Shown here: piece by piece, positions 4,103-57,346 of the stretch
How the letters are laid out: each line of letters starts with the position of its first letter
Numbering within the stretch: position 1 is the first letter of the stretch
From: a virus
Reading direction: 5' to 3' (one strand)
Virus record (IMG/VR): IMGVR_UViG_3300036785_000296
Coordinates: 10,005-74,004 of that record
DNA: 64,000 nt
Program-made: the position numbers and the translations under genes
Notes under the pieces: model-generated
What the model was told of the DNA's origin: nothing
What the model saw: the letters and a program-made list of their open reading frames with translations, nothing else
Databases searched by the model: none

Positions 4103-4135
4103 CTTGATATCAAACCGTGTCGCTGCCATATGTGA
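4103..4135 (+). promoter_or_regulatory. Putative sigma70 promoter for rightward genes, overlapping GATATC
   Basis: CTTGAT...CATATG immediately before ATG 4139 (possibly leaderless). Confidence 0.45.
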
Positions 4136-4138
4136 TTT

Positions 4139-4558
4139 ATGTCAGACGAACACACCTACGAACACAATCGCGTGTGCGCCCAGTGCGGCAAGCCGATCCC
4201 CGACGAGCGCGCCAAGCGCGTCCTCTACTGCGACAAGGTCTGCAAGCGGGCCTTCCACAACGTCAGCCAGTGTCGCGGCCAGGAGATCATGGCGTTCCTC
4301 GAAGCGCAGCGCAGGCACTGCCGCGCCAAGTCGGGCAAGAACTCGGAGCACTACGAAATCCAGAAGTTCGCGCGCCAGCAAGTTGCCGAGCTTCTCGCCG
4401 ACTACCTGCGGGCGGACAAGCTCAGCGGCCGGGACGCCAGCCTGATCGTGAGGGCGCGGATGGAAGAGGGCGTGCTGGTCATGGACAAGCGCCGCCGCCA
4501 GGATCGGCCGCAGCTCAGCTCGAAGCCCTGGTTCATGGAGAAGGAGCAGAGCGCATGA
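4139..4558 (+). CDS. Zinc-finger protein
   Basis: CAQC...YCDKVC motif. Confidence 0.65.
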   Translation: MSDEHTYEHNRVCAQCGKPIPDERAKRVLYCDKVCKRAFHNVSQCRGQEIMAFLEAQRRHCRAKSGKNSEHYEIQKFARQQVAELLADYLRADKLSGRDASLIVRARMEEGVLVMDKRRRQDRPQLSSKPWFMEKEQSA

Positions 4559-6031: not shown

Positions 6032-6195
6032 TGGGACGCAAGGTGCATCGGGGCGTGATGATCGAGCATGAGCCGCCGCTGATGCGGCGCGAGGACAAGA
6101 AGCCGCCGCCGCCCGGCGACCGCGTGCTGAAGGGCAAGGACGGCTCGAAGTACTTCATCGACGGCGCGTCGGGGCGCGTGACGAAACTGAGCTAG
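6031..6195 (+). CDS. Hypothetical protein
   Basis: TGATG coupling; stop shares CTAG with convergent gene. Confidence 0.5.
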   Translation: MGRKVHRGVMIEHEPPLMRREDKKPPPPGDRVLKGKDGSKYFIDGASGRVTKLS

Positions 6196-6428
6196 AGCCA
6201 GCTATCCTTGATCGACTTGCCGCTCACCATGATCACCGGCGCTCGGTAGGCCCGGCCCATGTGAAAGGCGCAGTAGTTGGCGATGCCGCAGGGTCGGCCG
6301 CAGAAGCCGAAGCCCGGCATGCTCGGCGTGCCGATGGGCCACTTGCAGACGCCGCGCCGCAAGCTCTCGACGCTGGCGATGGTGGGCGTCAGCTCCGGCG
6401 CCAGCGGCTGGAGGAGCTTGCCGGACAA
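6192..6428 (-). CDS. GcrA-like protein, C-terminal (sigma70-interacting, Cys/His) domain only
   Basis: CKWPIG.P....FGFCG......YC.FH...AY signature of GcrA C-terminus; TTG start with GAGG RBS right after the resolvase stop. Confidence 0.78.
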   Translation of the reverse strand: MSGKLLQPLAPELTPTIASVESLRRGVCKWPIGTPSMPGFGFCGRPCGIANYCAFHMGRAYRAPVIMVSGKSIKDSWL

Positions 6429-8030: not shown

Positions 8031-8070
8031 GATATCGTCATTGACAGAAGTGATGTCACAAACCTATGTG
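8031..8070 (+). promoter_or_regulatory. sigma70-type promoter with upstream GATATC and internal inverted repeat GTGA-TG-TCAC
   Basis: TTGACA 8041-8046, CTATGT 8064-8069; AT-rich divergent intergenic region. Confidence 0.65.
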
Positions 8071-13844: not shown

Positions 13845-14977
13845 TGCCGAGCGCCGACACCCCAGGCGTCCCGCCGAAGGACGTGCCGCGTCCCGACGAA
13901 GACCTCCATACGTGCGCCATCATGCTCGACCCAGGCTCGCCGCATCAGGACGACCCACCCGTCACCATCGTCATCTACCCGCTCGACTACGCCGCCGGTG
14001 GCCGCATCTTCAAATGGCTCCAGGGCCAGATGGCGCTCGCCAGGGAGGCACACGGTGGCTAGCTCGACCTTCTACCGGCATGACATCCCCGAGCGGGCGA
14101 CGCATCTGGTGCGCGGCTACATCGGGCGGGCGCTCCTGGCCGAGGTCTGGGCGCAGGGCTGGGGCACGGTCGAGACCGAGATCGAGGTGTTCAAGAGCCA
14201 GGAACACTGCGACCGGATCGAGGTGCAGTGGCTGGGCAACCCCTACGCCAGCGGGCCGCTGCGTGCGCGCGGTCACGTCGAGACGGTGTGGACCCGTGGC
14301 TGAGCCGCCCACCCCCCAGGAAGTCCGCAGCGCGGTGGAGCAACGCTACTACGTGCAGCCCAGCGGCATTGGCTGGCAGGTACGGGACAACGAGACTCAG
14401 CGGGTTGTCGAGCGCGACGGCTCGCTGTTGATCTTCAAGACGCAGAGCGCAGCCAACCGCGCGCGTCGTGCGATGCTCCACCCGGATGCCTTGCGTCAGC
14501 GGGAGCCCAAGCCGTGACCCCCACCCCCGAGGAGGTCCGCAGCGCGGTGATCGGCTTGCAGGCGTTCTGCGATGACCCCATCAACTCGAACCTGATGTTC
14601 GCCGTCGCTCGGGCAAAAGCCGTCCTCGCCGCCCACGCCCAGCAGCAGGCCATGCTGAAGGAGCTTCTCGGAACCGCCGAAGCCATCAACGGATCGCTCG
14701 ACCACTGTGAGGAACAGCAGCGCCCTTGGGAAGACAAGCAGCCGGAGCCGCTCATCTTTGCGAAGGTGCGCGAGATGCTGAAGCCATGATCCTGCGGACG
14801 TGCGGCGACTGCCGCCACCTCGACCCGGCCACGGTCCCCACCCAGTCGGCCCGCAAGGTTCGGTACTGCACCAAGCGCTGCACCTGGGAGTACGAGGCGA
14901 CGCCGCGCGGCGAGTTCGAGAGCGAGTGGTGGTGCTCCTTCTGGGAAGCCATTGCGCCCGGCCGCGTGAGTGCATAG
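13844..14977 (+). CDS. Five overlapping small hypothetical genes (13844-14062, 14055-14303, 14296-14517, 14514-14789, 14786-14977)
   Basis: Successive start/stop overlaps; third and fourth share TPxEVRSAV near the N-terminus. Confidence 0.55.
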
Positions 14978-15003
14978 ATATCTTGTGAAGGTCCGGATGG
15001 ACC
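14951..15003 (+). promoter_or_regulatory. Early-promoter cassette variant with GGTCC-GGAT-GGACC hairpin
   Basis: ATAGATATCT plus GGA-loop hairpin like the cassettes at 50785 and 54282. Confidence 0.55.
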
Positions 15004-15018
15004 GCAGAGATATCCAAC

Positions 15019-16293
15019 ATGATGAAGCAAGTTGACGGCAACGCCCTGCGGGACTGGGTGCAAGTCGCCCCGGAGCAGGAAGGCGACGAGCCCCACTACG
15101 TCCGCGCCGAGCGCGATGAGCCGGTCGAGGCCCACCTTCAGGTGCGGCCCCAGTTCGTCGGCGACCTCCTGAAGCGGGTCGCGAAGTTCCAGAAGATCGC
15201 CGCCCGGCACGGCCAGGAGGTCAGCGCCAGGAAGATCGGCGAGGTCATGGCGCCTCACCCGGTCTTCGGCAAGAAGCGCCCCCAGCGGCGCGAGGTCTGG
15301 GCGGTGGTGGTCCCCCCGATGGTCGGGGTGAAGGGCCGGATCGTGGGCCACTTCGAGCAGGCCGAGGACCGCAAGAGCCAGTACGTCCACGTCTTCCACG
15401 AGGCCGAGCGGGCCGCCTGCGAGGCGCTCCTGCCCCGCGCTGGCCAGTGCGACCACTGCCACAAGCAGCGGGCGCGGGTGAAGTCCTTCGTGGTCGAGCA
15501 TGAGGGCGAGGTCAAGCTGGTCGGCTCGAACTGCCTGATGGACTTCCTGGGCGTCGATCCCGGCTGGGCCCTGGCGGCGGCCGAGTGGTTCGAGGCGGCC
15601 GAGCGCAGCGAGAGCGAGGGCGGCTGGGGCGGCGGCGGCCACTACCGTGACCTGATGTCCCTAGTGGACGGCGCCTACAAGGTTGCCAAGAAGCACGGCG
15701 GCTACCCCCAAGGCGACGACCGCTACTGGTTCCGGAACCACGCCCAGATCGTGGCCTTCGGCCCCAAGAGCGCCTCCGACCGGGAGGTCGCCAAGGAGTA
15801 CGCCGGGTTCAAGCCCGAGCCCATCGACCTCCAGGCCCTCGCCGACTACGTCGAGCAGGCCTCCGGCGACTTCGGCGCCAACCTGCGGATCGCGATGGAG
15901 CAGGACATGATCCACGCCAAGCGCTCGGCGCTGGTGATCGCCGGGGTGGCCATGTGGGTCGGCCGCTCCCTGAAGCGGAAGGACGAAGAGGTCAAGGCCG
16001 CCAAGCTACCCGCGCCCAAGGCCTTCGCCGAGAAGGTCGGGAGCCGGATCGACTTCGAGGCCGAGGTGGTCCGCGCGATCCCCCGGCAGGGCGACTTCGG
16101 GATGAGCCTGATCATCGCCCTGCGCTGCGCGGACGGTCGGCAGGCGGTGAACTTCCACTCCGGCTCGTTCCGCCCCGAGGCTGGCAAGCGCTACAAGGTG
16201 CGGGCGAGCATCAAGCGGCACCAGCCCGCCTTCAAGGGCTTCGGCGAGGAGAGCGTGCTGAGCCGGGCGGTCTACGAGGAGATCAAGGCATGA
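15019..16293 (+). CDS. Conserved phage protein with CDHC/VGSNC motif and possible C-terminal OB fold
   Basis: 424 aa ORF downstream of cassette; GC-rich third codon positions. Confidence 0.7.
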   Translation: MMKQVDGNALRDWVQVAPEQEGDEPHYVRAERDEPVEAHLQVRPQFVGDLLKRVAKFQKIAARHGQEVSARKIGEVMAPHPVFGKKRPQRREVWAVVVPPMVGVKGRIVGHFEQAEDRKSQYVHVFHEAERAACEALLPRAGQCDHCHKQRARVKSFVVEHEGEVKLVGSNCLMDFLGVDPGWALAAAEWFEAAERSESEGGWGGGGHYRDLMSLVDGAYKVAKKHGGYPQGDDRYWFRNHAQIVAFGPKSASDREVAKEYAGFKPEPIDLQALADYVEQASGDFGANLRIAMEQDMIHAKRSALVIAGVAMWVGRSLKRKDEEVKAAKLPAPKAFAEKVGSRIDFEAEVVRAIPRQGDFGMSLIIALRCADGRQAVNFHSGSFRPEAGKRYKVRASIKRHQPAFKGFGEESVLSRAVYEEIKA

Positions 16294-47386: not shown

Positions 47387-47809
47387 TCAGCCCTCCAGCG
47401 CCATGATGATCAGGGTGTCGGCGATGTTGCCGACCGCCAGCAGCGGCGCCGCCACCTTCAGGTCTTCGTCCGCGACGTAGGCTACCTGCGAGAGCGTCAG
47501 CACGCCATCGATCTGGCCAGCAGGCACCAGCCACTGGCCGATGGCGACGCCGCCGGAGCTGACCGGGCAGACGTAGTCGCTGGCGGGCGCGACGCCGACC
47601 CGCATCCGGCAGTTGGCGAGCACGACGGTCTGGGCGTCGATGAACTCGTACCAGAAGAGGATCGCGCCCGGCGGCGGCTGGCCCTCGCGCACGCCGATGA
47701 TCTCCTGCGCCGCGTCCTGGCCGGTCAGCCCCTGCTCCCCGGTCATCGAGATGATCAGGGTCGGGGGCGGCGCCGGCGGCGAGCCGGGGACGATGTCAGC
47801 GGCCGACAA
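47387..47809 (-). CDS. Structural hypothetical protein
   Basis: In operon; TGEQGLTGQD collagen-like stub. Confidence 0.55.
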   Translation of the reverse strand: MSAADIVPGSPPAPPPTLIISMTGEQGLTGQDAAQEIIGVREGQPPPGAILFWYEFIDAQTVVLANCRMRVGVAPASDYVCPVSSGGVAIGQWLVPAGQIDGVLTLSQVAYVADEDLKVAAPLLAVGNIADTLIIMALEG

Positions 47810-48230
47810 CGGCGAACCTCCTGACGGGCACGGGCATCACCTGGGTCGGCTCATCGGTGTAGGCGCGCACGATGAACATCCCCTCCCAGCGCACGACGCC
47901 GTTGTCATCGCCGGTGGTGATGTCGCGCAAGCTGAAGTAGGGGCCGACCTTCGGGTTGCCGCTCATGTCGACCAGCGCCACGTCGCTCTGGGTGAGCGTC
48001 AGCATCTGCTGGTCGGGGTGACCGAGGATCGGCTTCAGCAGCGTCTGGAAGGCGCCGTCGACCTCGAACTCGTAGACGCTCTGGCTGACGTCGAGCGGGT
48101 TGCCCGCGCCGTCCTGAAAGGCGATGGCGAGCGGCGCCGCCGTCCGACCGTGGAGGCGCAGATTGCCGCAGCCGTCGATCCAGGCGGGCTGATAGACGAC
48201 GACCTGGGCCGGAGGAGGGGTCGTGGCCAT
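47796..48230 (-). CDS. BppU/Ig-like structural protein
   Basis: D..G.PLDVS, LTLTQ, EG.F.V; GAGGAG RBS. Confidence 0.55.
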   Translation of the reverse strand: MATTPPPAQVVVYQPAWIDGCGNLRLHGRTAAPLAIAFQDGAGNPLDVSQSVYEFEVDGAFQTLLKPILGHPDQQMLTLTQSDVALVDMSGNPKVGPYFSLRDITTGDDNGVVRWEGMFIVRAYTDEPTQVMPVPVRRFAVVGR

Positions 48231-48281
48231 GCCCGGCTCCTCTACCCTAAGAGCGCCTCCCGCGCGAGGGTCCGCCGCGAG

Positions 48282-48378
48282 CTGATATCAGTGGGCCCTT
48301 GAAATGTCTGGTCGCGATACCTATATGTGGTAGGTGAGGCGCGGCCGGAGTGGTCGCGACGAAGGCCCCGGAGGAGCC
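48282..48378 (+). promoter_or_regulatory. Early promoter cassette 1
   Basis: CTGATATCAG; CTTGAA-N17-CTATAT; GCGGCC-GGAGT-GGTCGC hairpin; GGAGG SD. Confidence 0.8.
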
Positions 48379-49251
48379 ATGAACATAGGTCCCGTCATCC
48401 GCCCGAAGACCGGGCACAACCGCTACTGCGGGCCGGCGGCGCTCAGCGCCATCTGCCGCATCGACACCGCCAAGGCGGCGGAGGTGCTGCGCGAGGTCAC
48501 CGGCAAGAAGTCGATCAAGGGCGTCTGGGAGGCCCAGATGGTCCGCGCCCTGATGAAGCTCGGATACCGGGCGCTTCAGATGCCGACCCCCAAGGAGCAG
48601 TCCCTGGCGGCGTGGCTGAAGACCAGCAACCTGAAGGTCCGTGGAGCCAAGGTCTACCTCGTCGCCGCCGGCAACCACTTCGTCACCATCCAAGGGCGAC
48701 GCGGCGTCTGCACGCTCTCCGATGGCGAGGTGGTGGCGCTCAGCAAGCTCAAGAGGCGCCGGGCCAACGTTCGGTCGGTCTTCGTGATCAGCAAGAAGAC
48801 AGCGCCGCCGCCCGTGCAGCGGGTGCCCGGCGTCAAGCCGAAGGTCCCCGCCAAGCTCCTGCCGCTGAAGACCGTGGCTGCGGCCGAAGCGTCCCTGGCC
48901 AAGGCCAAGATCGCCGCCGACGCCGCCCTGGCGAAGCTGCGCGCGGAGGAGCTGCGGCTCGCCGCCACCAAGCGGTGGGTCGCCGAGCAGAAGGTCCGCG
49001 ACGAGAAGAACGCGGAGGCGCGAGCCCGGCGGAAGGCCAAGCTGCTGGCCGCCGAGCACGGCATCGAGATCGAGATCGACCAGATCGAGCCGGGCTACCG
49101 CCACTACTGGGTCACCGGGCCGGAGGCGATCTACCCCGGCGACGAGGGCGATCCCTGGAAGGGCGACCATATCGGCCACGGCTGGGAGGAGGTGCTCGAC
49201 CGGGTCGAGGTCTACGTCGAGGACATCAAGAAGCGGAAGGAGGTGGCGTGA
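48379..49251 (+). CDS. Papain-like (C39-type) cysteine peptidase domain + coiled coil
   Basis: RYCGPAALSAI ... GNHFVTI. Confidence 0.6.
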   Translation: MNIGPVIRPKTGHNRYCGPAALSAICRIDTAKAAEVLREVTGKKSIKGVWEAQMVRALMKLGYRALQMPTPKEQSLAAWLKTSNLKVRGAKVYLVAAGNHFVTIQGRRGVCTLSDGEVVALSKLKRRRANVRSVFVISKKTAPPPVQRVPGVKPKVPAKLLPLKTVAAAEASLAKAKIAADAALAKLRAEELRLAATKRWVAEQKVRDEKNAEARARRKAKLLAAEHGIEIEIDQIEPGYRHYWVTGPEAIYPGDEGDPWKGDHIGHGWEEVLDRVEVYVEDIKKRKEVA

Positions 49252-50408
49252 TGTCCGAGACCTACGTCAAGACCTTCAAGCCGAGCCCGCGCGGCCCCAA
49301 GCTCCGCTTCGCCGACGAGACCCTGGCCGAGCGCTTCCGCGACCCGAAGAAGGACGGTGAGGTCTGGCTGGCCCGCGAGCTTGGCCAGCACGCCCCCGAC
49401 AACTCGGTGGTGCGCCGCATCCTGCTCGACGCCAAGCGCTACGTCATGGACGACGACGCGCTGAAGCTGGCAGTCGATCTCTCGGAGAGCTGGCCGCGCC
49501 AAGTCCTGCATCAGCTCGACGCCATCGAGATGCCAGCAAAGGAAGGGGTGTGGATCGAGTTCAGCTCGCAGACCCTGACACGGCAGCGGCTGAAGTATGG
49601 GACCCTGGAAGACGCGCCCGCTGATCGCCCGCCCACGGCGCGCTGCGGGATGCTGATCAAGGACCGGGGCGACGGGCTGATCCAGACGTGGTGCATCGAG
49701 GACGGCGACCCCGACGAGTTCGGCCAGCGCGAGGGCCTGATCGTCGCGTGGCCGATGAGCTACTGCATCAGCCTCAACGGCCCGCGCGAGGCCCATCGCG
49801 GCCAACGCGGGCAACCGGGGTGGACCGCGCTCTGCTGGGGCTACGGCTCACAGGTGGAAGACCTCGCACTGCTCGACGGGCGCGCGTGGCCGACGATGGA
49901 CCCGAGCTTCATGAAGCTCTTCGCGCAGCAGCAGGGCGTGGGCAAGCTCATGCACGAGCTGCGCGGCTGGACCCGGCTCACCGTCGCGATGCTGGCGCTG
50001 CTCTCGACCGTCGCCTCCATCGTGGAGGTGCCGCGCCCTGCCGGCCACGCGCGGATCGGCGGCCTGATGCGGCCCCGGCTGAAGAGCGACCGGCTGGTGA
50101 TCTACGTCCCCCGCACGATCCGCAAGCCGGTCCCGTGGGCGCGGAAGATCATCCACCAGAGCGCCCAGCACCGGCGCCGCCTGCACGAGGTCTCCAAGCA
50201 CTGGCGCCACCTCGACCATCTGCCGAAGGCCCCAGGCTGGGAGCCGGTCCTCATCGGCAACAAGTGGATGTGGCGCAAGGAGATCGCGTTCCACCTCCGG
50301 GGCGACCCGGACCTGGGGGTGGTCGAGCACCGCGAGACGTTCGTCAAACTGAACAAGCGATACCGTCAGATCACGGAGGAGACCCATCATGGCGACAACG
50401 ACACGTAA
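49251..50408 (+). CDS. Conserved phage protein with C-terminal H.V..HWR....W.....H.RGD..LG motif
   Basis: AGGAGG RBS; TGATG coupling. Confidence 0.7.
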   Translation: MSETYVKTFKPSPRGPKLRFADETLAERFRDPKKDGEVWLARELGQHAPDNSVVRRILLDAKRYVMDDDALKLAVDLSESWPRQVLHQLDAIEMPAKEGVWIEFSSQTLTRQRLKYGTLEDAPADRPPTARCGMLIKDRGDGLIQTWCIEDGDPDEFGQREGLIVAWPMSYCISLNGPREAHRGQRGQPGWTALCWGYGSQVEDLALLDGRAWPTMDPSFMKLFAQQQGVGKLMHELRGWTRLTVAMLALLSTVASIVEVPRPAGHARIGGLMRPRLKSDRLVIYVPRTIRKPVPWARKIIHQSAQHRRRLHEVSKHWRHLDHLPKAPGWEPVLIGNKWMWRKEIAFHLRGDPDLGVVEHRETFVKLNKRYRQITEETHHGDNDT

Positions 50409-50803
50409 GCGATACTGGATGAGCGCGGTGGACGAGTTCGACTCGTTCGGGCGGCTGATCGTCGGCGAGTTCATCGACGGGCGGATCGGCCCGCAGTGCG
50501 GGAACACGCTGGCCTGGGCGATCTTCACGCCCGACTCGTGGAAGCACTTCGGCTTTGGCAGGCTGGGCACTGGCTACGGCCAGCGCTACGTGAAGCAGCC
50601 GGACGGCCGGTGGCTGAAAGTCGACGGATAGGATCATGACCGACGCACAGCTCGCAGCAGCGGCGACGATCCAGGCGATTGCCGAGGAGTTCAGCGAGAC
50701 CGAGAAGCGCTGGAGCCCAACCGATCTGCGCCGCCAGGGCAGGCGGCTGCTCGAAGCGCTCGAAGCCATCGTGCCGAAGGAAACGATATCTCCCCTTGAA
50801 TAG
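50389..50803 (+). CDS. Two small hypothetical genes (50389-50631, 50636-50803)
   Basis: RBS GGAG; tight packing. Confidence 0.55.
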
Positions 50804-50875
50804 GAAGGGTAGAATAGATATCTAAGACGTGCGGCCGGAGAGGTCGCGCGAGAGAGGTCTGGAGGACCGAACAGC
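50785..50875 (+). promoter_or_regulatory. Early promoter cassette 2
   Basis: GATATC, CTTGAA, ATAGATATCT, GCGGCC-GGAGA-GGTCGC and GGTC-TGGAG-GACC hairpins. Confidence 0.8.
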
Positions 50876-52560
50876 ATGAAGAACCTGAACGCCTACAAGG
50901 CGATCCTCGCCGAAGCCGAAGCCGCCGCCGTCGAGGCGATCAAGGCCAACGCCGGACGCGAGAACCGCTTCGCCTTCGACTGCGGCTTCGCCTGGGCCGT
51001 GATCGAGGACGGTAGGTCCGATCTCTACAAGGCGGCCAAGCAGGCCAAGTCCGGCGAGCCCGGCTACGGCCACAAGAACTACGGCGCGCCCGGCTGGCAA
51101 GTCTGGATGCCCGGCCGCCACGGCTCCGGCTTCAACGGCCAGAGCGTCGGCATCTTCGAGGCGGGGGCCCGCGCCTTCGCGGAGGTGCTGAAGAAGCACG
51201 GCTTCGCCGCCCACTGGTCGAGCCGTCTGGACTGACCCCGGAGAGAACCATGATCATCGTCCAAGTCCACCACAACCAGACCGGCAGCGCGCTCTACGAG
51301 CACGTCGCCAACGTCAGCTACCAGGGCGAGGATGTCGAGCACGCGCTCGACTACGCCTGGGAGCGCACCCAAAACATCGACGGCTCTTGGTCGCGCGGGA
51401 TCACCTACCCGGACGGTCAGCGCAACGCGGACTACTCCGCGCACATCGAGCGCCTCGCTCCGCTGCCGGTCTACGACGGCAAGACCTTCGGCCTGCGCTC
51501 CTCGATGGTCGGCGACCGCTTCGTGATCGAGGGCGTCGGCGCCTGGAAGGTCGCCGGCTGCGGCTTCGAGAAGGAGGCCGCATGAGCGCGAGCAAGACCG
51601 AGCAGCGCGTGCTGCGGAACGTGATCCGCAAGCTCGGGCCAGACGCCCAGGTCAGCGGCGAGGGGCGCGAGCACCTGAAGGCGCTCCGCATCTACCTCGA
51701 CACCTGGGTGATCGCGCCGCTCGAACTGCTGGCCAAGGAGGATCGGACTTCCTGGGACCTCCGCCACGCCGACGATCTCGCCCGATGAGCCGCGAGATCG
51801 ACCGCCTGAAGTGCAAGGCCAGGAAGCTGTACCGCCGGATGATGCGCGAACTCGACACCGTGGACTGCGGCATCTCGATGCTCAGCTTCATCCGCCCCAG
51901 CTTCGGCCGCCTCGTCGCCGAGTACGACGCCACCATCGCCCGCCTGCGCGAGATCGATCCCAGCTTCCCCAAGGAGAAATCCCGATGATCACCCAAGCCC
52001 AGCGCGACCGGGCCTACCACGTCCTGATGGCAGCTCTCGCCGAGGAGGCCGCAGTCCGCGAGCTGCCCGACGCCGAGCTGACCGAGAAGTCCAACGCCAT
52101 CTGGGACGACTGCTACGGCGACAAGGAGACCCCATGACCGCACCGACCCACGTCCAGGGCCACGCGGTGACCGCCGCCGAGCCCGCCCTGCGCGGCGGCT
52201 ACATCCTGCTGGTTGACCAGGGACCGGGGCGTCAGCTCCGCTGGGTCACCGGCTGGCTGGCCACCGGCGAGACCGTCCCGGCCTACCGCAACTACTTCCA
52301 CGCCGAGGGCGCAGCCCGGCTGGATTTCACGCAGCGCTGCGAGAGAGGATGCTGACCCCATGAACGACACCTTCGACCTTCACTTCTCGACCGAGAACGC
52401 GGCCTTCGAGGACGCGCCGCTGACCGAAGTGGCGCGCATCCTGCGGAACCTCGCCGACCGCGTCGAGCGCATCACCGGCGGCTATCCGGCCGGCACGGTT
52501 GTCGATGTGAACGGCAATACCATCGGCCACTGGTCCCACAACGCCAGCGGCAGGGCCTGA
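50876..52560 (+). CDS. Seven small early genes (50876-51235, 51250-51585, 51582-51788, 51785-51988, 51985-52137, 52134-52355, 52360-52560)
   Basis: ATGA overlaps, GGAG RBSs; phage-type motifs such as CGFAW, RSSMVGD and NAAF..EVARIL. Confidence 0.7.
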
Positions 52561-52650
52561 TATCAAACCCTTGCATTTTGGCCAGGGAATACATATCTAA
52601 GTGATGCGGCCGGAAGCGCCGCGAGAGATGAGCCTGGAGGGCTCAAGACC
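52559..52650 (+). promoter_or_regulatory. Early promoter cassette 3
   Basis: GATATC, CTTGCA, ATACATATCT, GCGGC-CGGAAGC-GCCGC and GAGCC-TGGAG-GGCTC hairpins. Confidence 0.8.
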
Positions 52651-53242
52651 ATGACACTCTCGGAAGCCGTCGAACTGCGGGACTTCATCGCGGCCCTAGG
52701 CGGCTGCGAGCACGCCGCCGTCAAGCGACACCGCGCCGGCTACAAGCTGGTCGTCCGCTTGGTCGGCGAGCCGCCCCGCAGCTACGTCAACCACGACCGC
52801 GCCTTCAACCACTACTGCGCCTCGCTGGACGAGGAAGACGCATGAGCCACCTCCCCTTCCACTACGTGAGCCCGGCGGGCAACGAGGTCTGGAGCCGCGA
52901 GCCGATGAGCCCGGCCGACCTGATCGAGCATGACGCGATGATCGCGGCGATGCCCGACGAGCCCGAGCCCGACTACGACGAAGACCCCGACGCTGACGGC
53001 TACGGCTGGGAGCGCAAAGCCCTGAGAGGGATCGAATGACCGTGTCTTGGAAGCCCGAAGTGATCGCCGATAGCACCGGCAAGTGGGCGGGCAACGCCCT
53101 GCGCTTCGCCACCAAGGAGGAGGCCGAGCAGAACGTCCTCGCCCTCTCCCTGCGCTGGCTCGCCGTCCGCGAGACCCGCGTGGTCGAGTGCGACGATCCC
53201 GTCAACTACGCATGGCGCGATGGCGCGCTCGTGCAGGTCTGA
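52651..53242 (+). CDS. Three small early genes (52651-52845, 52842-53039, 53036-53242)
   Basis: ATGA overlaps; SWKPEV....W..NALRFAT.EEA motif in third. Confidence 0.7.
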
Positions 53243-53259
53243 GAAAGGACCCCCCGATC

Positions 53260-53799
53260 ATGGCCCGTAGAGCAGCAGGCTCCCGCAACCACCCCGTCCA
53301 GGCCGACCTCGCAGGCGCGCTCGGCGACGGCACCTCCGAAGTCGAGGAGCTGAAGAACGAGATGGAGGAGTGGGCCGAGAGCCTGGAGAGCAACAGCATG
53401 GAGCATCTCCCGAAGTACGACGAGGTGACCGAGGCCAAGGACGCGCTCGAAGCCGGGCTCGACACCCTCCAGGGCATCGAGGTCCCCGAGTTCTTGGAGA
53501 GCATCGACGCCAGCTACACCCAGGACACCCGGCGCAAGGCCCAGTCCCGCTCCTACCGCCTGGGCAACGCCACCAACGCCATCGAGGCCGCCAAGGACGC
53601 GGCCAACTCCTGGCTGGAGGAGAACGACGAGCTTGAGCTGATGTCCGACGCCGACGCCATCGAGGATGGGGCCGAAGAGGTGACCCAGGAGATGGTGGAC
53701 GAGCGCCGCTCGCAGCGCGACGACGCCGAGCAGTTCGCCAGCGAGGTCGAGAACGCGCTCGGCGAACTGGAGAACGTCAGCTTCCCGAGCATGTACTGA
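53260..53799 (+). CDS. Highly acidic helical protein
   Basis: About one quarter Asp/Glu; AAAGGA RBS. Confidence 0.7.
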   Translation: MARRAAGSRNHPVQADLAGALGDGTSEVEELKNEMEEWAESLESNSMEHLPKYDEVTEAKDALEAGLDTLQGIEVPEFLESIDASYTQDTRRKAQSRSYRLGNATNAIEAAKDAANSWLEENDELELMSDADAIEDGAEEVTQEMVDERRSQRDDAEQFASEVENALGELENVSFPSMY

Positions 53800-54314
53800 T
53801 GAACGAGCAAGCCATCGCCTCGATCCGCGAGTACCTCGAAGCCCTGGAGTCGCTGGCGGCCAAGTACCTGCGCTCCGGCGCCCAGTCGCCGCACCGCTTC
53901 CTGCTGGATCAGGGGCGCGCCTTCCGGGTTGGGTCTAATACCTACAAGGGTCGGCGCGACGCCCCGAAGGAGTGCTACAGCAACGCTGGCAGGCGCGCCA
54001 TGCAGCCGGACAGCAAGCTCCTGTACGCCGAAGGCTACACCACCAGCGTCGGCTACATCCCGATCCCGCACGCTTGGCTGGTCACGCCGGACGGCGAGGT
54101 GATCGACACCACGCTGAAGGGCGGCGACGAGGAGTATGGCGAGCGCGGCTACTTCGGTCTGGCGTTCACGCCCGAGTACGTCGCCAAGACCACCGCCAGG
54201 ACCGGCTACTGGAGCCTGCTGGACGACATCGCGCCCACCCGCCACGACATCATGCTAGGGAACACCAGCGGCATGCTGGCGGATATCTCGCTCTTGAAAT
54301 CCGGCCCGGAATAG
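53799..54314 (+). CDS. Transglutaminase/papain-like Cys-His-Asp protein
   Basis: ECY.NA, YAEGY, PIPHAW, VID.T, YFG. Confidence 0.6.
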   Translation: MNEQAIASIREYLEALESLAAKYLRSGAQSPHRFLLDQGRAFRVGSNTYKGRRDAPKECYSNAGRRAMQPDSKLLYAEGYTTSVGYIPIPHAWLVTPDGEVIDTTLKGGDEEYGERGYFGLAFTPEYVAKTTARTGYWSLLDDIAPTRHDIMLGNTSGMLADISLLKSGPE

Positions 54315-54369
54315 ATATCTATGAGGTGCGGCCGGATGGTCGCGTGACCCACGGATCGGAAAGACCCAG
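54282..54369 (+). promoter_or_regulatory. Early promoter cassette 4
   Basis: GATATC, CTTGAA, ATAGATATCT, GCGGCC-GGAT-GGTCGC hairpin. Confidence 0.8.
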
Positions 54370-56780
54370 ATGCTGCCAGCCCAACTCCTCGCCAAGCTCC
54401 AGACCGAGATCATGGCCCTGGAGATCGCCAAGGTCGGCGGCTCGAAGCTCGCCGAGCTGAAGGCCCAGGCCGCCCAGGCCAAGGCCGTCGTCAACGCCAA
54501 GTAAGGAACCCCTGATGAGCCTCCACAACGAACTCTACGGCCGAATGGTGATCGGCCAGCCCGAGCCGGAGATCGGCATGGGCGCCTCGATCCTCTCCTA
54601 CTCCGACCGCCACGCCGCCAGCGTGATCGAGATCGCCGAGAAGTACCGGGTCGGCGGCAAGGGGTCCTACGCCTCGCTGGCGGAAGCCAAGCTCGCCGCC
54701 CAGGCGCTGTTCGAGCGCAAGGGCGTCGTCGTCGGCATCGAGCGCGCCGAGATCGTCATCGCGGTCCAGCGCGACCACGCCAAGCGCGTGGACGACAACG
54801 GCATGAGCGAGAGCCAGGAGTACGAGTTCAGCCCCAACCCGAAGGGGATGATCGACCACTTCCGCAAGGCCAAGGACGGGCGCTGGGAACAAGTCTGCCG
54901 GAGCCAGAAGGGGCACTGGAGAAAGAGCGGCGGCTACGGCCTGCGGCTCGGCGAGCGCCTCGCCTACCACGACTTCAGCTTCTGAGGAGGGAGCCCATGA
55001 GCAAGTACCGACAGACCCACCTCGAAGTGAAGCGGCACCTCGGCGAGCCCGCGCGCATGACTGCGATCTGCGGCTTCGACTACACCTGGGAGAAGAACTT
55101 CACCCAGGACGAGGCCAAGGTCACCTGTCCAACGTGCCTGGGCCACATCCACCGGCGGCTCCTCGCCGAGCGCCCGGCCGACGCCCCCAAGCTGGCGCTC
55201 GACATCGACCGCGACCAGTTCAACGGCGCCTACCGCTACGTCTACAGGGCCCTGCTCGGCGGCGAGCACGTCGCCTGGGTCGTCTACGACGGCGCCTACG
55301 GCAAGGCGCGCTGGCGGCTCTGCGTGATCAACCGGCCGAACGACAAGGACAAGCGCACCATCGGCTACCAGCTAGCCCGCGACGAGGACGAGGTCGGCGC
55401 CTACAGCCGCATCTCGCTCGGCTTTCCGACCAAGGAGGCCGCGCTGATGGCGGTCCCCGAGCTGCGCGCCGGTGGCCGCCTGCGGACGCTGCCAGAGCTG
55501 AACGAGCTGCACGCCGACTCCCAGCGCCGCCAAGCGCGCTGGAAGATCGAGCGGGCCGCCGAGGCCAAGCAGGAGGCCGAGGATCGCGAGATCATGCTGG
55601 CGGGCATCGAGAGCCTGCTGGCCAGGGGCGACCTCACCAACATCGAGCGCGCAGCGGTCACCCTGATGCAGCGCCGCATCCCCCAGGCCAAGGAGGCCGC
55701 ATGAGCATCTTCGATGACGTCCTCAAGCCGATCTTCGCGCCGGGCAACCTGCGCGACGTGATGCGGCGCTACGGGGAGGCGGGCCGGGTCGATCTGGTCG
55801 GCACCTTCCCGAAGGCCGACGCCGAACATCTGGTCAGCGTGCTGAAGGCCGTTGGCTACGACGTGTTCATCCGCGAGGAGCAGGCATGATCCAGCGCCTG
55901 AACGTCGAGCCGGACGGCTTCTGCCGCATCTACTACCGCGACGGTCGAGGCCCGCTCTACTGCTGGCAGAACGACCACGACGAGCGCTGGAGCTTCTACC
56001 GTTGCAGCCGCGACGGCGAGCCCAGCCACATGGTCGTGCTGCGCGATCAGCCGCTCTGCCCGCAGGGATCGCCGACCGCCGAATGGCTCGCGCTCCGTGG
56101 CGAGGTCGGCCTATGAGCGGCCCGCTCTGCAAGGTCTGCGGCAAGCCGGTGCCGAAGACGACGAGCTACCACGAGTTCGGCGTCGAGCACATCAGTCGCA
56201 GCCCGTCCTGGGTCTGCCACCCGGAGAAGCCCGCGACGCGCGAGGAGGCGCAGCGCCTCGTCAACGGCCAGATCATCTCGATCAAGATGTCCTGGCGCGG
56301 CGACAGCCCGCGCTACGTCGCCAGAGCCAACGTCTGGGACGGCGAGAGCTACGAGTGGGACGGGAACTTCCACGCCCAGTCGTGCGCCGCCGCCTTCGGC
56401 GCCGCGATGGCTCTCCAACATCCCACCTTCGGCATGCCCGCCTACCACGCGGCGATGAAGGAGCGCGCATGACCATGACCTGGGTGCGCCTGCATCCCGA
56501 AGCCACCTTGGAGCACGTCGGCCTGATCCCGTCGTTCCTCGACGCCGACGATCCGCGCCCGGCGGCCGAGCAGTTCAACGCGCGCTACCAGTTCGGCGGC
56601 TGGAGCCCGCTGCCCCGCTTCACGCTGATCGAGGGCCTGGGACTGAGCTACCCCGGCGACCCCATCCTCGCGCCGCTCTACGCCACGCGGCTGCACGACG
56701 AGATCGTCGTGATCTACAGCGCCGGCTTCGTCGCCATCGTCCAGCCGGGCGGCACGTTCGAGGTGTCGAGGCTGGATTGA
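54370..56780 (+). CDS. Seven early hypothetical genes (54370-54504, 54515-54985, 54997-55704, 55701-55889, 55886-56116, 56113-56472, 56469-56780)
   Basis: RBSs and ATGA overlaps. Confidence 0.7.
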
Positions 56781-56863
56781 TACCCGCGCATTGACTACGT
56801 AAGCTGCCCTGATACCAGCGAGCGCTTGCACTTCAGGGGGAGGACCCGAGCCAAGGAACCCAG

Positions 56864-57097
56864 ATGAGTACGACCGAGACCGATGATCGCCGACAGCTCG
56901 TCCTGCGCCTGCCGCCCGATCTGTTCGCGCGGATCGAGCGCTTCACGTCCGACCGGGGTGGCTCGCGCCACAGCGCAATCCTCTACCTGCTCGACCTGGG
57001 CATCGGGAACGACACCGAGATCGCCCGCCGCGTCGACGTGGTGAAAGCGAGGATCAAGGCGAAGCTGGAGCGCGACCTCGCGGACACGGCGGTCTGA
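56864..57097 (+). CDS. Ribbon-helix-helix (Arc/CopG-like) protein
   Basis: QLVLRLPPDL..RI........SR.SAI..LL. Confidence 0.7.
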   Translation: MSTTETDDRRQLVLRLPPDLFARIERFTSDRGGSRHSAILYLLDLGIGNDTEIARRVDVVKARIKAKLERDLADTAV

Positions 57098-57133
57098 TAT
57101 CAGATTGCAACGTCGCGCCCGCGTCGCCATATC
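57093..57133 (+). promoter_or_regulatory. Promoter for acidic 63-aa gene with TCTGATATCAGA palindrome
   Basis: ATTGCA-N18-CATATC, GAGGAG RBS downstream. Confidence 0.6.
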
Positions 57134-57154
57134 AAGAGTGAGAGGAGTGCTGGC

Positions 57155-57346
57155 ATGGCCAGGAAACCACTGAGCGACGAGGAGAAGTACAAGCGAGCCT
57201 ATGACGGCTTCGACCTCAGTGACGACGACTTGGAGGGGGACGACCCCGACGACGCCGAGATGGATCGGTACATCAAGAGCGTGCAGGACGGCACCTACAA
57301 GCCCGAGGAAGACGCCGACCTGATCGAGCCGAAGAAGCCCGCCTAG
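57155..57346 (+). CDS. Small acidic protein, candidate antitoxin of the zeta-like kinase
   Basis: 21/63 Asp/Glu; convergent with zeta gene, stops share CTAG. Confidence 0.6.
   Translation: MARKPLSDEEKYKRAYDGFDLSDDDLEGDDPDDAEMDRYIKSVQDGTYKPEEDADLIEPKKPA

Follow-up and report, generated by a model that had tools for sequence, protein, structure and literature searches.

The window analysed here is a 64,000-nucleotide (nt) stretch of DNA, bases 10005-74004 of the virus record IMGVR_UViG_3300036785_000296, which is 74,004 bp long, has direct terminal repeats, is rated complete and contains 68% G+C. The minus strand of this uncultured phage encodes a portal protein (PF06381), a sheath-like DUF3383 protein and a DUF2213 protease/scaffold, and genes for a helicase, a primase and an ATPase are found elsewhere in the genome. 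The minus-strand structural genes are interrupted by a 9-kb plus-strand array of 25 genes, with the portal, sheath and protease genes on its flanks. A repeat of about 90 nt, called the cassette below, occurs four times in the window. Each copy is the head of a run of plus-strand ORFan genes, and the cassettes divide the array into five predicted transcription units. A Pfam scan of the 25 genes gave no family above cut-off, and only three of them match PHROGs, all of unknown function.

The repeated cassette

Read from the sequence, the four copies share one layout. A GATATC box is followed, after 5-9 nt, by a -35 hexamer (TTGAAA, TTGAAT or TTGCAT), a spacer of 14-17 nt and a -10 of the form (G/C/T)ATAT(C/G). 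The downstream half consists of 6 nt (13 nt in copy 1), a hairpin of the form GCGGCC-loop-GG(T/C)CGC, which we call H1, and a leader that holds the Shine–Dalgarno (SD) sequence and ends at an ATG. A second hairpin, H2, is present in two copies. Table 1 gives the coordinates, which agree with those of a first-pass annotation for three copies; the remaining one, placed there at 48282, actually starts at 48284.

The cassettes are tightly joined to the genes before them. The GATATC box is fused to the upstream stop as TGATATC at the TGA of g11 (52558-52560) and at the TGA of g24 (57095-57097), the TAG stop of g4 lies inside the -35 of cassette 2, and that of g16 overlaps the -10 of cassette 4.

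The first-pass annotation had described a recurring series of GATATC, TTG, -10 and GGA-loop hairpin, and this series is borne out by a blind repeat search and by over-representation against shuffled sequences. The search recovers the cassette as family D8, with three copies of 28 nt at 86-93% identity. Another family, D4, joins cassettes 2 and 3 over 68 nt (74%), with no gap between the -10 and the ATG. The 74-kb genome has 19 GATATC sites, whereas shuffles have 6.0 ± 2.5 (maximum 12), an approximately three-fold excess. ATAGATATCT, with at most two mismatches, is present 18 times against 6.3 ± 3.0 expected. An nhmmer profile made from eight copies detects no additional copy in the phage genome; it matches two copies on which it was not trained, in contigs L089 (E 2e-14) and L088 (E 1e-11). 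The four cassette types diverge widely in the -35 region, the spacer and the leader, and H1 is kept in all of them.

Table 1. Coordinates of the cassettes, of related promoters and of the gene array, in window numbering except for the last row.
Feature	Positions	Strand	Elements	Gene or remark
Cassette 1 (type 1)	48284..48381	+	GATATC 48284-48289; -35 TTGAAA 48299-48304; -10 TATATG 48322-48327	
Cassette 1 leader			H1 CGCGGCC-GGAGT-GGTCGCG 48340-48358; SD GGAGGAG 48370-48376	ATG 48379 of g1 (290 aa)
Cassette 2	50785..50878	+	GATATC 50785-50790; -35 TTGAAT 50796-50801; -10 GATATC 50817-50822 or TATCTA 50819-50824	
Cassette 2 H1	50829-50849	+	GUGCGGCC-GGAGA-GGUCGCGC	
Cassette 2 H2	50856-50868	+	GGUC-UGGAG-GACC, SD in loop	ATG 50876 of g5
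Cassette 3	52559..52653	+	GATATC 52559-52564; -35 TTGCAT 52571-52576; -10 CATATC 52592-52597	
Cassette 3 leader			H1 GCGGC-CGGAAGC-GCCGC 52606-52622; H2 GAGCC-UGGAG-GGCUC 52630-52644	ATG 52651 of g12
Cassette 4	54282..54372	+	GATATC 54282-54287; -35 TTGAAA 54294-54299; -10 GATATC 54314-54319	
Cassette 4 leader			H1 GCGGCC-GGAU-GGUCGC 54328-54343; conserved leader GUGACCCACGGAUCGGAAAGACCCAG; no H2	ATG 54370 of g17
Promoter 5	57096..57157	+	TGA + GATATC 57096-57101; TTGCAA 57105-57110; CATATC 57128-57133; no H1	
Promoter 5 leader			21 nt; SD GAGAGGAG	ATG 57155 of g25 (63 aa)
H1-less promoter	8031..8069	+	GATATC-GTCA-TTGACA-N17-CTATGT	
Doubtful variant	14974..15021	+	ATAGATATCT 14974-14983; second GATATC 15009-15014	ATAGATATCT holds the TAG of the upstream open reading frame (ORF); ATG 15019
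Doubtful variant hairpin	14990-15003	+	GGTCC-GGAT-GGACC	z = -1.0 vs shuffles
Gene array	48379-57346	+	25 tightly packed genes, 29-385 aa	GC3 frame plot, ORF list
L087 repeated unit (six copies)	397, 1768, 4997, 9923, 10574, 13358	+	AAAAGGAC-TTGACG-TCCTGGCAAGTnCCCTG-TAywGA	in L087 numbering

Orthologous cassettes and gene exchange

Carriers of the cassette belong to one small lineage, all from one soil metagenome set (three related IMG/VR contigs). The first of these, IMGVR_UViG_3300036798_000144 (L001/L070), is syntenic with the phage at 45-89% protein identity and has orthologues of cassettes 2, 3 and 4 and of promoter 5 (C2', C3', C4' and P5'), together with an extra type-1 cassette, Cx'. 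Orthologues of cassette 1 are present in contigs ..._000120 (L089) and ..._000717 (L088). The H1 of cassette 1 is identical in L089 and reads GCGACC-GGAGT-GGTCGC in L088. In L001-C2' the hairpin is GCGGCCC-GGTGT-GGGCCGC, and in L001-C3' both hairpins are identical to those of cassette 3. Cassette 4 and L001-C4' are 93-97% identical over the 60 nt from 54306 to 54365, and their flanks align at 40-70%.

The genes behind the cassettes are exchanged between these relatives. The gene after cassette 1 is replaced in L088 by one of 198 aa that has no homologue, unrelated genes follow C3' and Cx' in L001, and C4' is immediately preceded there by an extra gene. At 48326, within cassette 1, soil contigs break off and have 669 different letters as far as 49305. 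Indels at g9, g19 and g21 do not adjoin cassettes. In the soil runs X1-X3, the region 48200-57400 of the window has many strain variants, joints and replaced segments (X3 skips from 51739 to 53799); the make-up of the ORFan array varies greatly within the soil population.

In IMG/VR, the regions upstream of distant g5 homologues are unrelated to the cassette. A contig search with the pattern GCGGCCNGG matched one true relative, and further cassette patterns run against viral, metagenome and genome contigs returned the same single relative and chance matches only.

Promoter type and likely host

A search of the phage proteins for RNA polymerase and sigma domains was negative, so the phage must use the host enzyme. 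The -35 and -10 of the cassettes fit the Caulobacter RpoD (sigma73) consensus, TTGaCgS-N10-14-GCtANAWC (PMC8144410), in that the -10 ends in ATATC and the distance from the 7-mer to the 8-mer, 11-14 nt, is within the 10-14 of the consensus. They differ from Caulobacter RpoD promoters in their weaker -35 (TTGAAA, TTGCAT) and in the extra GATATC box upstream. A promoter scan with the E. coli consensus called no promoter at the cassettes because the -10 ends in C. In nine of the 11 promoters 32-33 bp separate the GATATC box from the -10, though the position of the -35 varies. We suggest that the box (TGATATCA) may be a UP-like AT-rich element, placed as it is at the position of a proximal subsite; less probably, it could be a site for a protein. 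A search for GapR was negative.

The sequencing runs that contain the phage sequence are soil metagenomes. A blastn search of the INPHARED phages found no relative of this phage, and a search with the portal protein returned only phages of about 50% identity, with various hosts. A GcrA-like ORF of 78 aa is located on the minus strand at window positions 6195-6428; it matches only the C-terminal part of the family (PF07750 positions 97-147, E 1e-10). The phage records that match this ORF belong almost all to Caulobacter and Brevundimonas phages, 26 of 29 being Caulobacter phages. The host is probably a Caulobacter-like alphaproteobacterium.

A more distant relative, L087 (IMGVR_UViG_3300036846_001111), is without this cassette and has a repeated unit of its own, in six copies. 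That unit contains a perfect TTGACGTCC -35, a GACGTC over the -35, and an A-rich tract at the position that corresponds to the GATATC box. In two copies the leader has a GGGCG-N4-CGCCC hairpin, and in one the SD is in a loop. In copy 13358 the ATG is 9 nt past the -10, and its message is apparently leaderless. Since L087 has its own cassette, repeated cassettes with a host-type promoter are general in the phage group, and the H1 sequence with its GGA loop is specific to the lineage.

The leader hairpins and their proposed role

RNAfold predicts H1 in all ten copies, that is, those of the window and their orthologues, as a GC-rich stem-loop of 6-9 bp. In the ten-copy alignment, 90% of the cells are paired, against 28-50% when the partners are slid. 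Four pairs of the core are invariant and one is variable, being G-C in four cases, G.U in four and A-U in one, and never a mismatch. The loops have 4, 5 or 7 nt. GGA is present at the 5' side of the loop in nine copies and is lost in L001-C2', where a C:G pair has been added, G.U has become G-C, and the loop GGAGA has become GGUGU. The leaders of cassette 2, C2' and cassette 3 are clearly more stable than shuffled sequences (z = -3.06, -3.0 and -2.18). A generic scan finds about 24 GGA-loop hairpins with stems of at least 6 bp in the genome, so that a GGA-loop hairpin as such is unremarkable, and no Rfam covariance model matches the cassettes at E <= 1. With the +1 predicted 7 nt beyond the end of the -10, seven of the ten copies have the start of H1 within 0-2 nt of it.

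H2, with the SD in its loop, is predicted by RNAfold at 50856 and 52630, as had been annotated, and only in cassette types 2 and 3; cassettes 1 and 4 have none. Between types 2 and 3, two of its pairs are changed on both sides in a compensatory manner and the UGGAG loop is invariant. The first-pass annotation had also argued that the stems differ among copies while the pairing is kept. For H1 the argument is weaker than it was put there, the stems being near-identical with one variable core pair; for H2 it holds modestly.

The geometry, together with the variable loops and the wobble pairs, speaks for a hairpin in the RNA, at the 5' terminus of the message. We propose, with moderate confidence, that the cassette combines an early promoter with a hairpin in the 5' leader, the hairpin serving to protect or insulate the message, in a phage reliant on host RNA polymerase. 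A host RpoD-type alphaproteobacterial promoter (TTGnnn at -35, nATATC at -10) would drive each module, with transcription starting at the base of H1 or no more than 2 nt from it. H1, most likely as a 5'-terminal hairpin, would keep RppH and 5'-end-dependent RNase E from attacking the transcript. The short leader would be insulated as well, leaving the SD accessible whichever gene follows, and in two cassette types the loop of H2 would display the SD. The repeated unit of about 90 nt would in addition serve as a seam for the exchange of ORFans between related phages. A common 5' leader element had been proposed earlier; a shared promoter and leader do head the small-gene operons, and of the three functions first put forward for the element, mRNA stabilisation fits best because H1 lies at the predicted +1.

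Base-paired 5' ends are known to slow RNase E, and 5' stem-loops stabilise the ompA and papA mRNAs (review PMC3997798). The cassette leaders, as predicted, resemble the E. coli ompA and papA 5' untranslated regions: a short stable hairpin lies at the very start of the mRNA or within a few nt of it, and a short leader with the SD comes next. The cassettes differ from such 5' stabilising stem-loops in that the same hairpin sequence recurs across several operons, and in that the type-1 copies are predicted to have about 6 unpaired nt ahead of the hairpin. The T7 gene 10 leader is a further example of a 5'-terminal stabilising stem-loop.

Several observations weigh against this proposal. The covariation of H1 is not significant against column shuffles (109/500), and the 5' arm is so nearly invariant in sequence that a site of sequence-specific DNA or RNA recognition is equally compatible with it. 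Half of the leaders are no more stable than shuffles (z from +0.1 to -1.4). The start site is itself predicted from promoter geometry alone, and in the type-1 copies (window, L089 and L088) H1 is about 6 nt from it, so that the 5' end would be single-stranded. Between relatives, the genes on either side of cassette 2 are better conserved than the cassette. Lastly, promoters of the same class at 57096, at 8031 and probably at 4106 are without H1, and H1 is thus no general requirement.

The invariance of the left arm also bears on a second reading, in which H1 acts as DNA. The imperfect palindrome GCGRCC-N4-5-GGYCGC, with its centre near +10, perhaps with the paired GATATC boxes, would be an operator for a phage or host repressor that turns all four ORFan operons off together after the early phase. 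A site between +1 and +20 is typical of operators, the variable position, with R in the left arm and Y in the right, could belong to a degenerate half-site, and the fixed distance between box and -10 fits as well, as does the excess of GATATC. However, the arms are 4, 5 or 7 bp apart, a variation seldom tolerated by dimeric DNA binders, G.T combinations are found in four of the nine distinct copies and A..C in none, and the palindrome is absent from the same-class promoters at 57096 and 8031. Neither a helix-turn-helix nor any other DNA-binding domain was found among the proteins of the plus-strand cluster. We consider an operator of this kind unlikely. A broader version is that, in a host lineage lacking CsrA, the invariant GUGCGGCCGGA hairpin is an RNA or DNA operator of a novel phage or host regulator that co-regulates the four ORFan operons, with the paired GATATC boxes (32-33 bp) as a second, transcriptional input. 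Such a regulator could be an early shut-off factor, with a logic analogous to that of T4 RegA/RegB. A search for RegB (PF10715) was negative, and we assign this version a low probability.

The GGA loops had suggested control by a CsrA-like protein, in which H1, alone or with H2, would be the site of a GGA-recognising RNA-binding regulator of the Csr/Rsm type, and translation of the early genes would be repressed or timed. The leaders do resemble those bound by CsrA and RsmA/E in having a GGA in a hairpin loop and another at the SD some 20 nt downstream: GGA is at the 5' side of nearly every H1 loop, the GGA of H2 is in a loop closed by U.G, and the two GGAs are 16-24 nt apart. The resemblance does not extend to the details. 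The H1 loops are preceded by CC and do not have the A(N)GGA or ACA-GGA-UGU context, the second GGA belongs to a normal SD, and in L001-C2' the loop became GGUGU and the stem was strengthened. The leader hairpins of L087 have ACGU or AUGA in their loops. CsrA (PF02599) is not found in the phage, a control with the same family is silent in Caulobacter vibrioides (a stand-in, as the host itself is inferred), and the host indicators point to a Caulobacter-like bacterium. We regard control of this type as quite improbable.

It may also be asked whether H1 has any function. The copies could be recent duplicates whose likeness is maintained by gene conversion or recombination, with the hairpin merely carried along with the promoter. 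The near-identical stems, folding energies that are often no better than those of shuffles, and gene swaps that reveal recombination at the cassettes are in line with this. On the other hand, all four types retain H1 while differing widely around it, and the orthologues, from phages with 45-89% protein identity, keep the pairing through changes from G.U to G-C, from G.U to A-U and through an inserted C:G. It is rather unlikely that H1 is a passenger.

Antitermination had been suggested as well, with H1 and H2 as a boxB- or put-like signal against terminators within the operons. In cassettes 2 and 3 two stem-loops do follow the promoter directly, the co-directional gene arrays are long, and promoter-proximal stem-loops are a feature of early phage transcripts with lambda nut (boxA/boxB) or HK022 put. 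The cassettes depart from those systems on several counts. A terminator scan found no plus-strand intrinsic terminator in 47500-58000 that would have to be overridden, and the leaders have no boxA; an exact match to CGCTCTTA is found just once, on the opposite strand (48248-48255), and the relatives have not kept it. The loops are fixed neither in length (4-7 nt) nor in sequence, with no fixed GNRA-like pentaloop, H2 is absent from cassettes 1 and 4, and Rfam gives no match. We therefore judge antitermination very improbable. A hairpin promoter of the N4 type was rejected, as there is a host-type promoter upstream and no virion RNA polymerase.

The promoters of the same class without H1 have some features of their own. 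Promoter 5, at 57096, has an orthologue at L001 11627 (GATACC...TATATC). In L001 11627-11567 (minus strand) a perfect inverted repeat, TCACGC-CC-GCGTGA, occupies the spacer between -35 and -10, and its counterpart in the window is CGCG-CC-CGCG. The 63-aa protein driven by promoter 5 is acidic, and its gene ends against a zeta-toxin-domain gene (57343-58677, minus strand). The site at 4106 (4106-4141) has TTGATATCAA, then CATATG, with an ATG about 7 nt on. The gene there encodes a 139-aa protein with a weak match to the DksA/TraR zinc finger, and the transcript is possibly a leaderless mRNA.

The variant cassette that had been placed at 14951 is doubtful. What this site (14951/14974) has in common with the cassettes is ATAGATATCT alone, and its small hairpin is not H1; no -35 lies within usable range, the upstream box is missing, and the cassette profile gives no match. 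Its GATATC boxes at 14977 and 15009 are exactly 32 bp apart, which is the distance from box to -10 in the cassettes, and they flank the hairpin GGTCC-GGAT-GGACC within an intergenic gap of 42 nt.

Next to cassette 1, on the minus strand at 48231-48283, the leader of the 28-kb structural operon has TTAGGGTAGAGGAG, conserved in L088 and L089. A weak, sub-threshold Rfam match to Rhodo-rpoB (E 0.82) covers window positions 48173-48266.

The closest known counterparts of the cassette as a whole are the promoter-early stem-loop (PeSL) cassettes described for the T4-type phages RB49/phi1, PST/T4 and nt-1/KVP40 (PMC2839356, PMC4122927). In both cases a unit of about 100 bp is repeated in an ORFan region between blocks of core genes. 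In both, an AT-rich element with the stop codon of the upstream gene precedes the -35, and a host sigma70-type early promoter is combined with a GC-rich stem-loop and with an SD and ATG at the 3' end. In both, the cassettes are places where related phages have gained or replaced genes. In most PeSLs, in contrast, the stem-loop overlaps the promoter boxes or sits between them, and it ends transcription arriving from upstream. H1 follows the -10 after 6 nt, where the transcript is predicted to begin; it lacks a U tract, and the terminator scan does not report it. The phage described here is also not T4-like, and its host is of a high-GC, alphaproteobacterial type.

The cassette is thus the high-GC equivalent of the promoter/stem-loop cassettes known from T4-type phages and no new regulatory system or principle. 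It extends the PeSL-type design, and the gene shuffling that is linked to it, from T4-type coliphages, which are AT-rich, to a lineage of high-GC soil phages with apparently Caulobacter-like hosts, and to a version in which the hairpin is inside the transcript. With its promoter, 5' hairpin and SD-in-loop, it would be a compact, portable expression module for such hosts. It also offers a test case for whether 5'-terminal hairpins guard phage early messages from decay by alphaproteobacterial RNase E.

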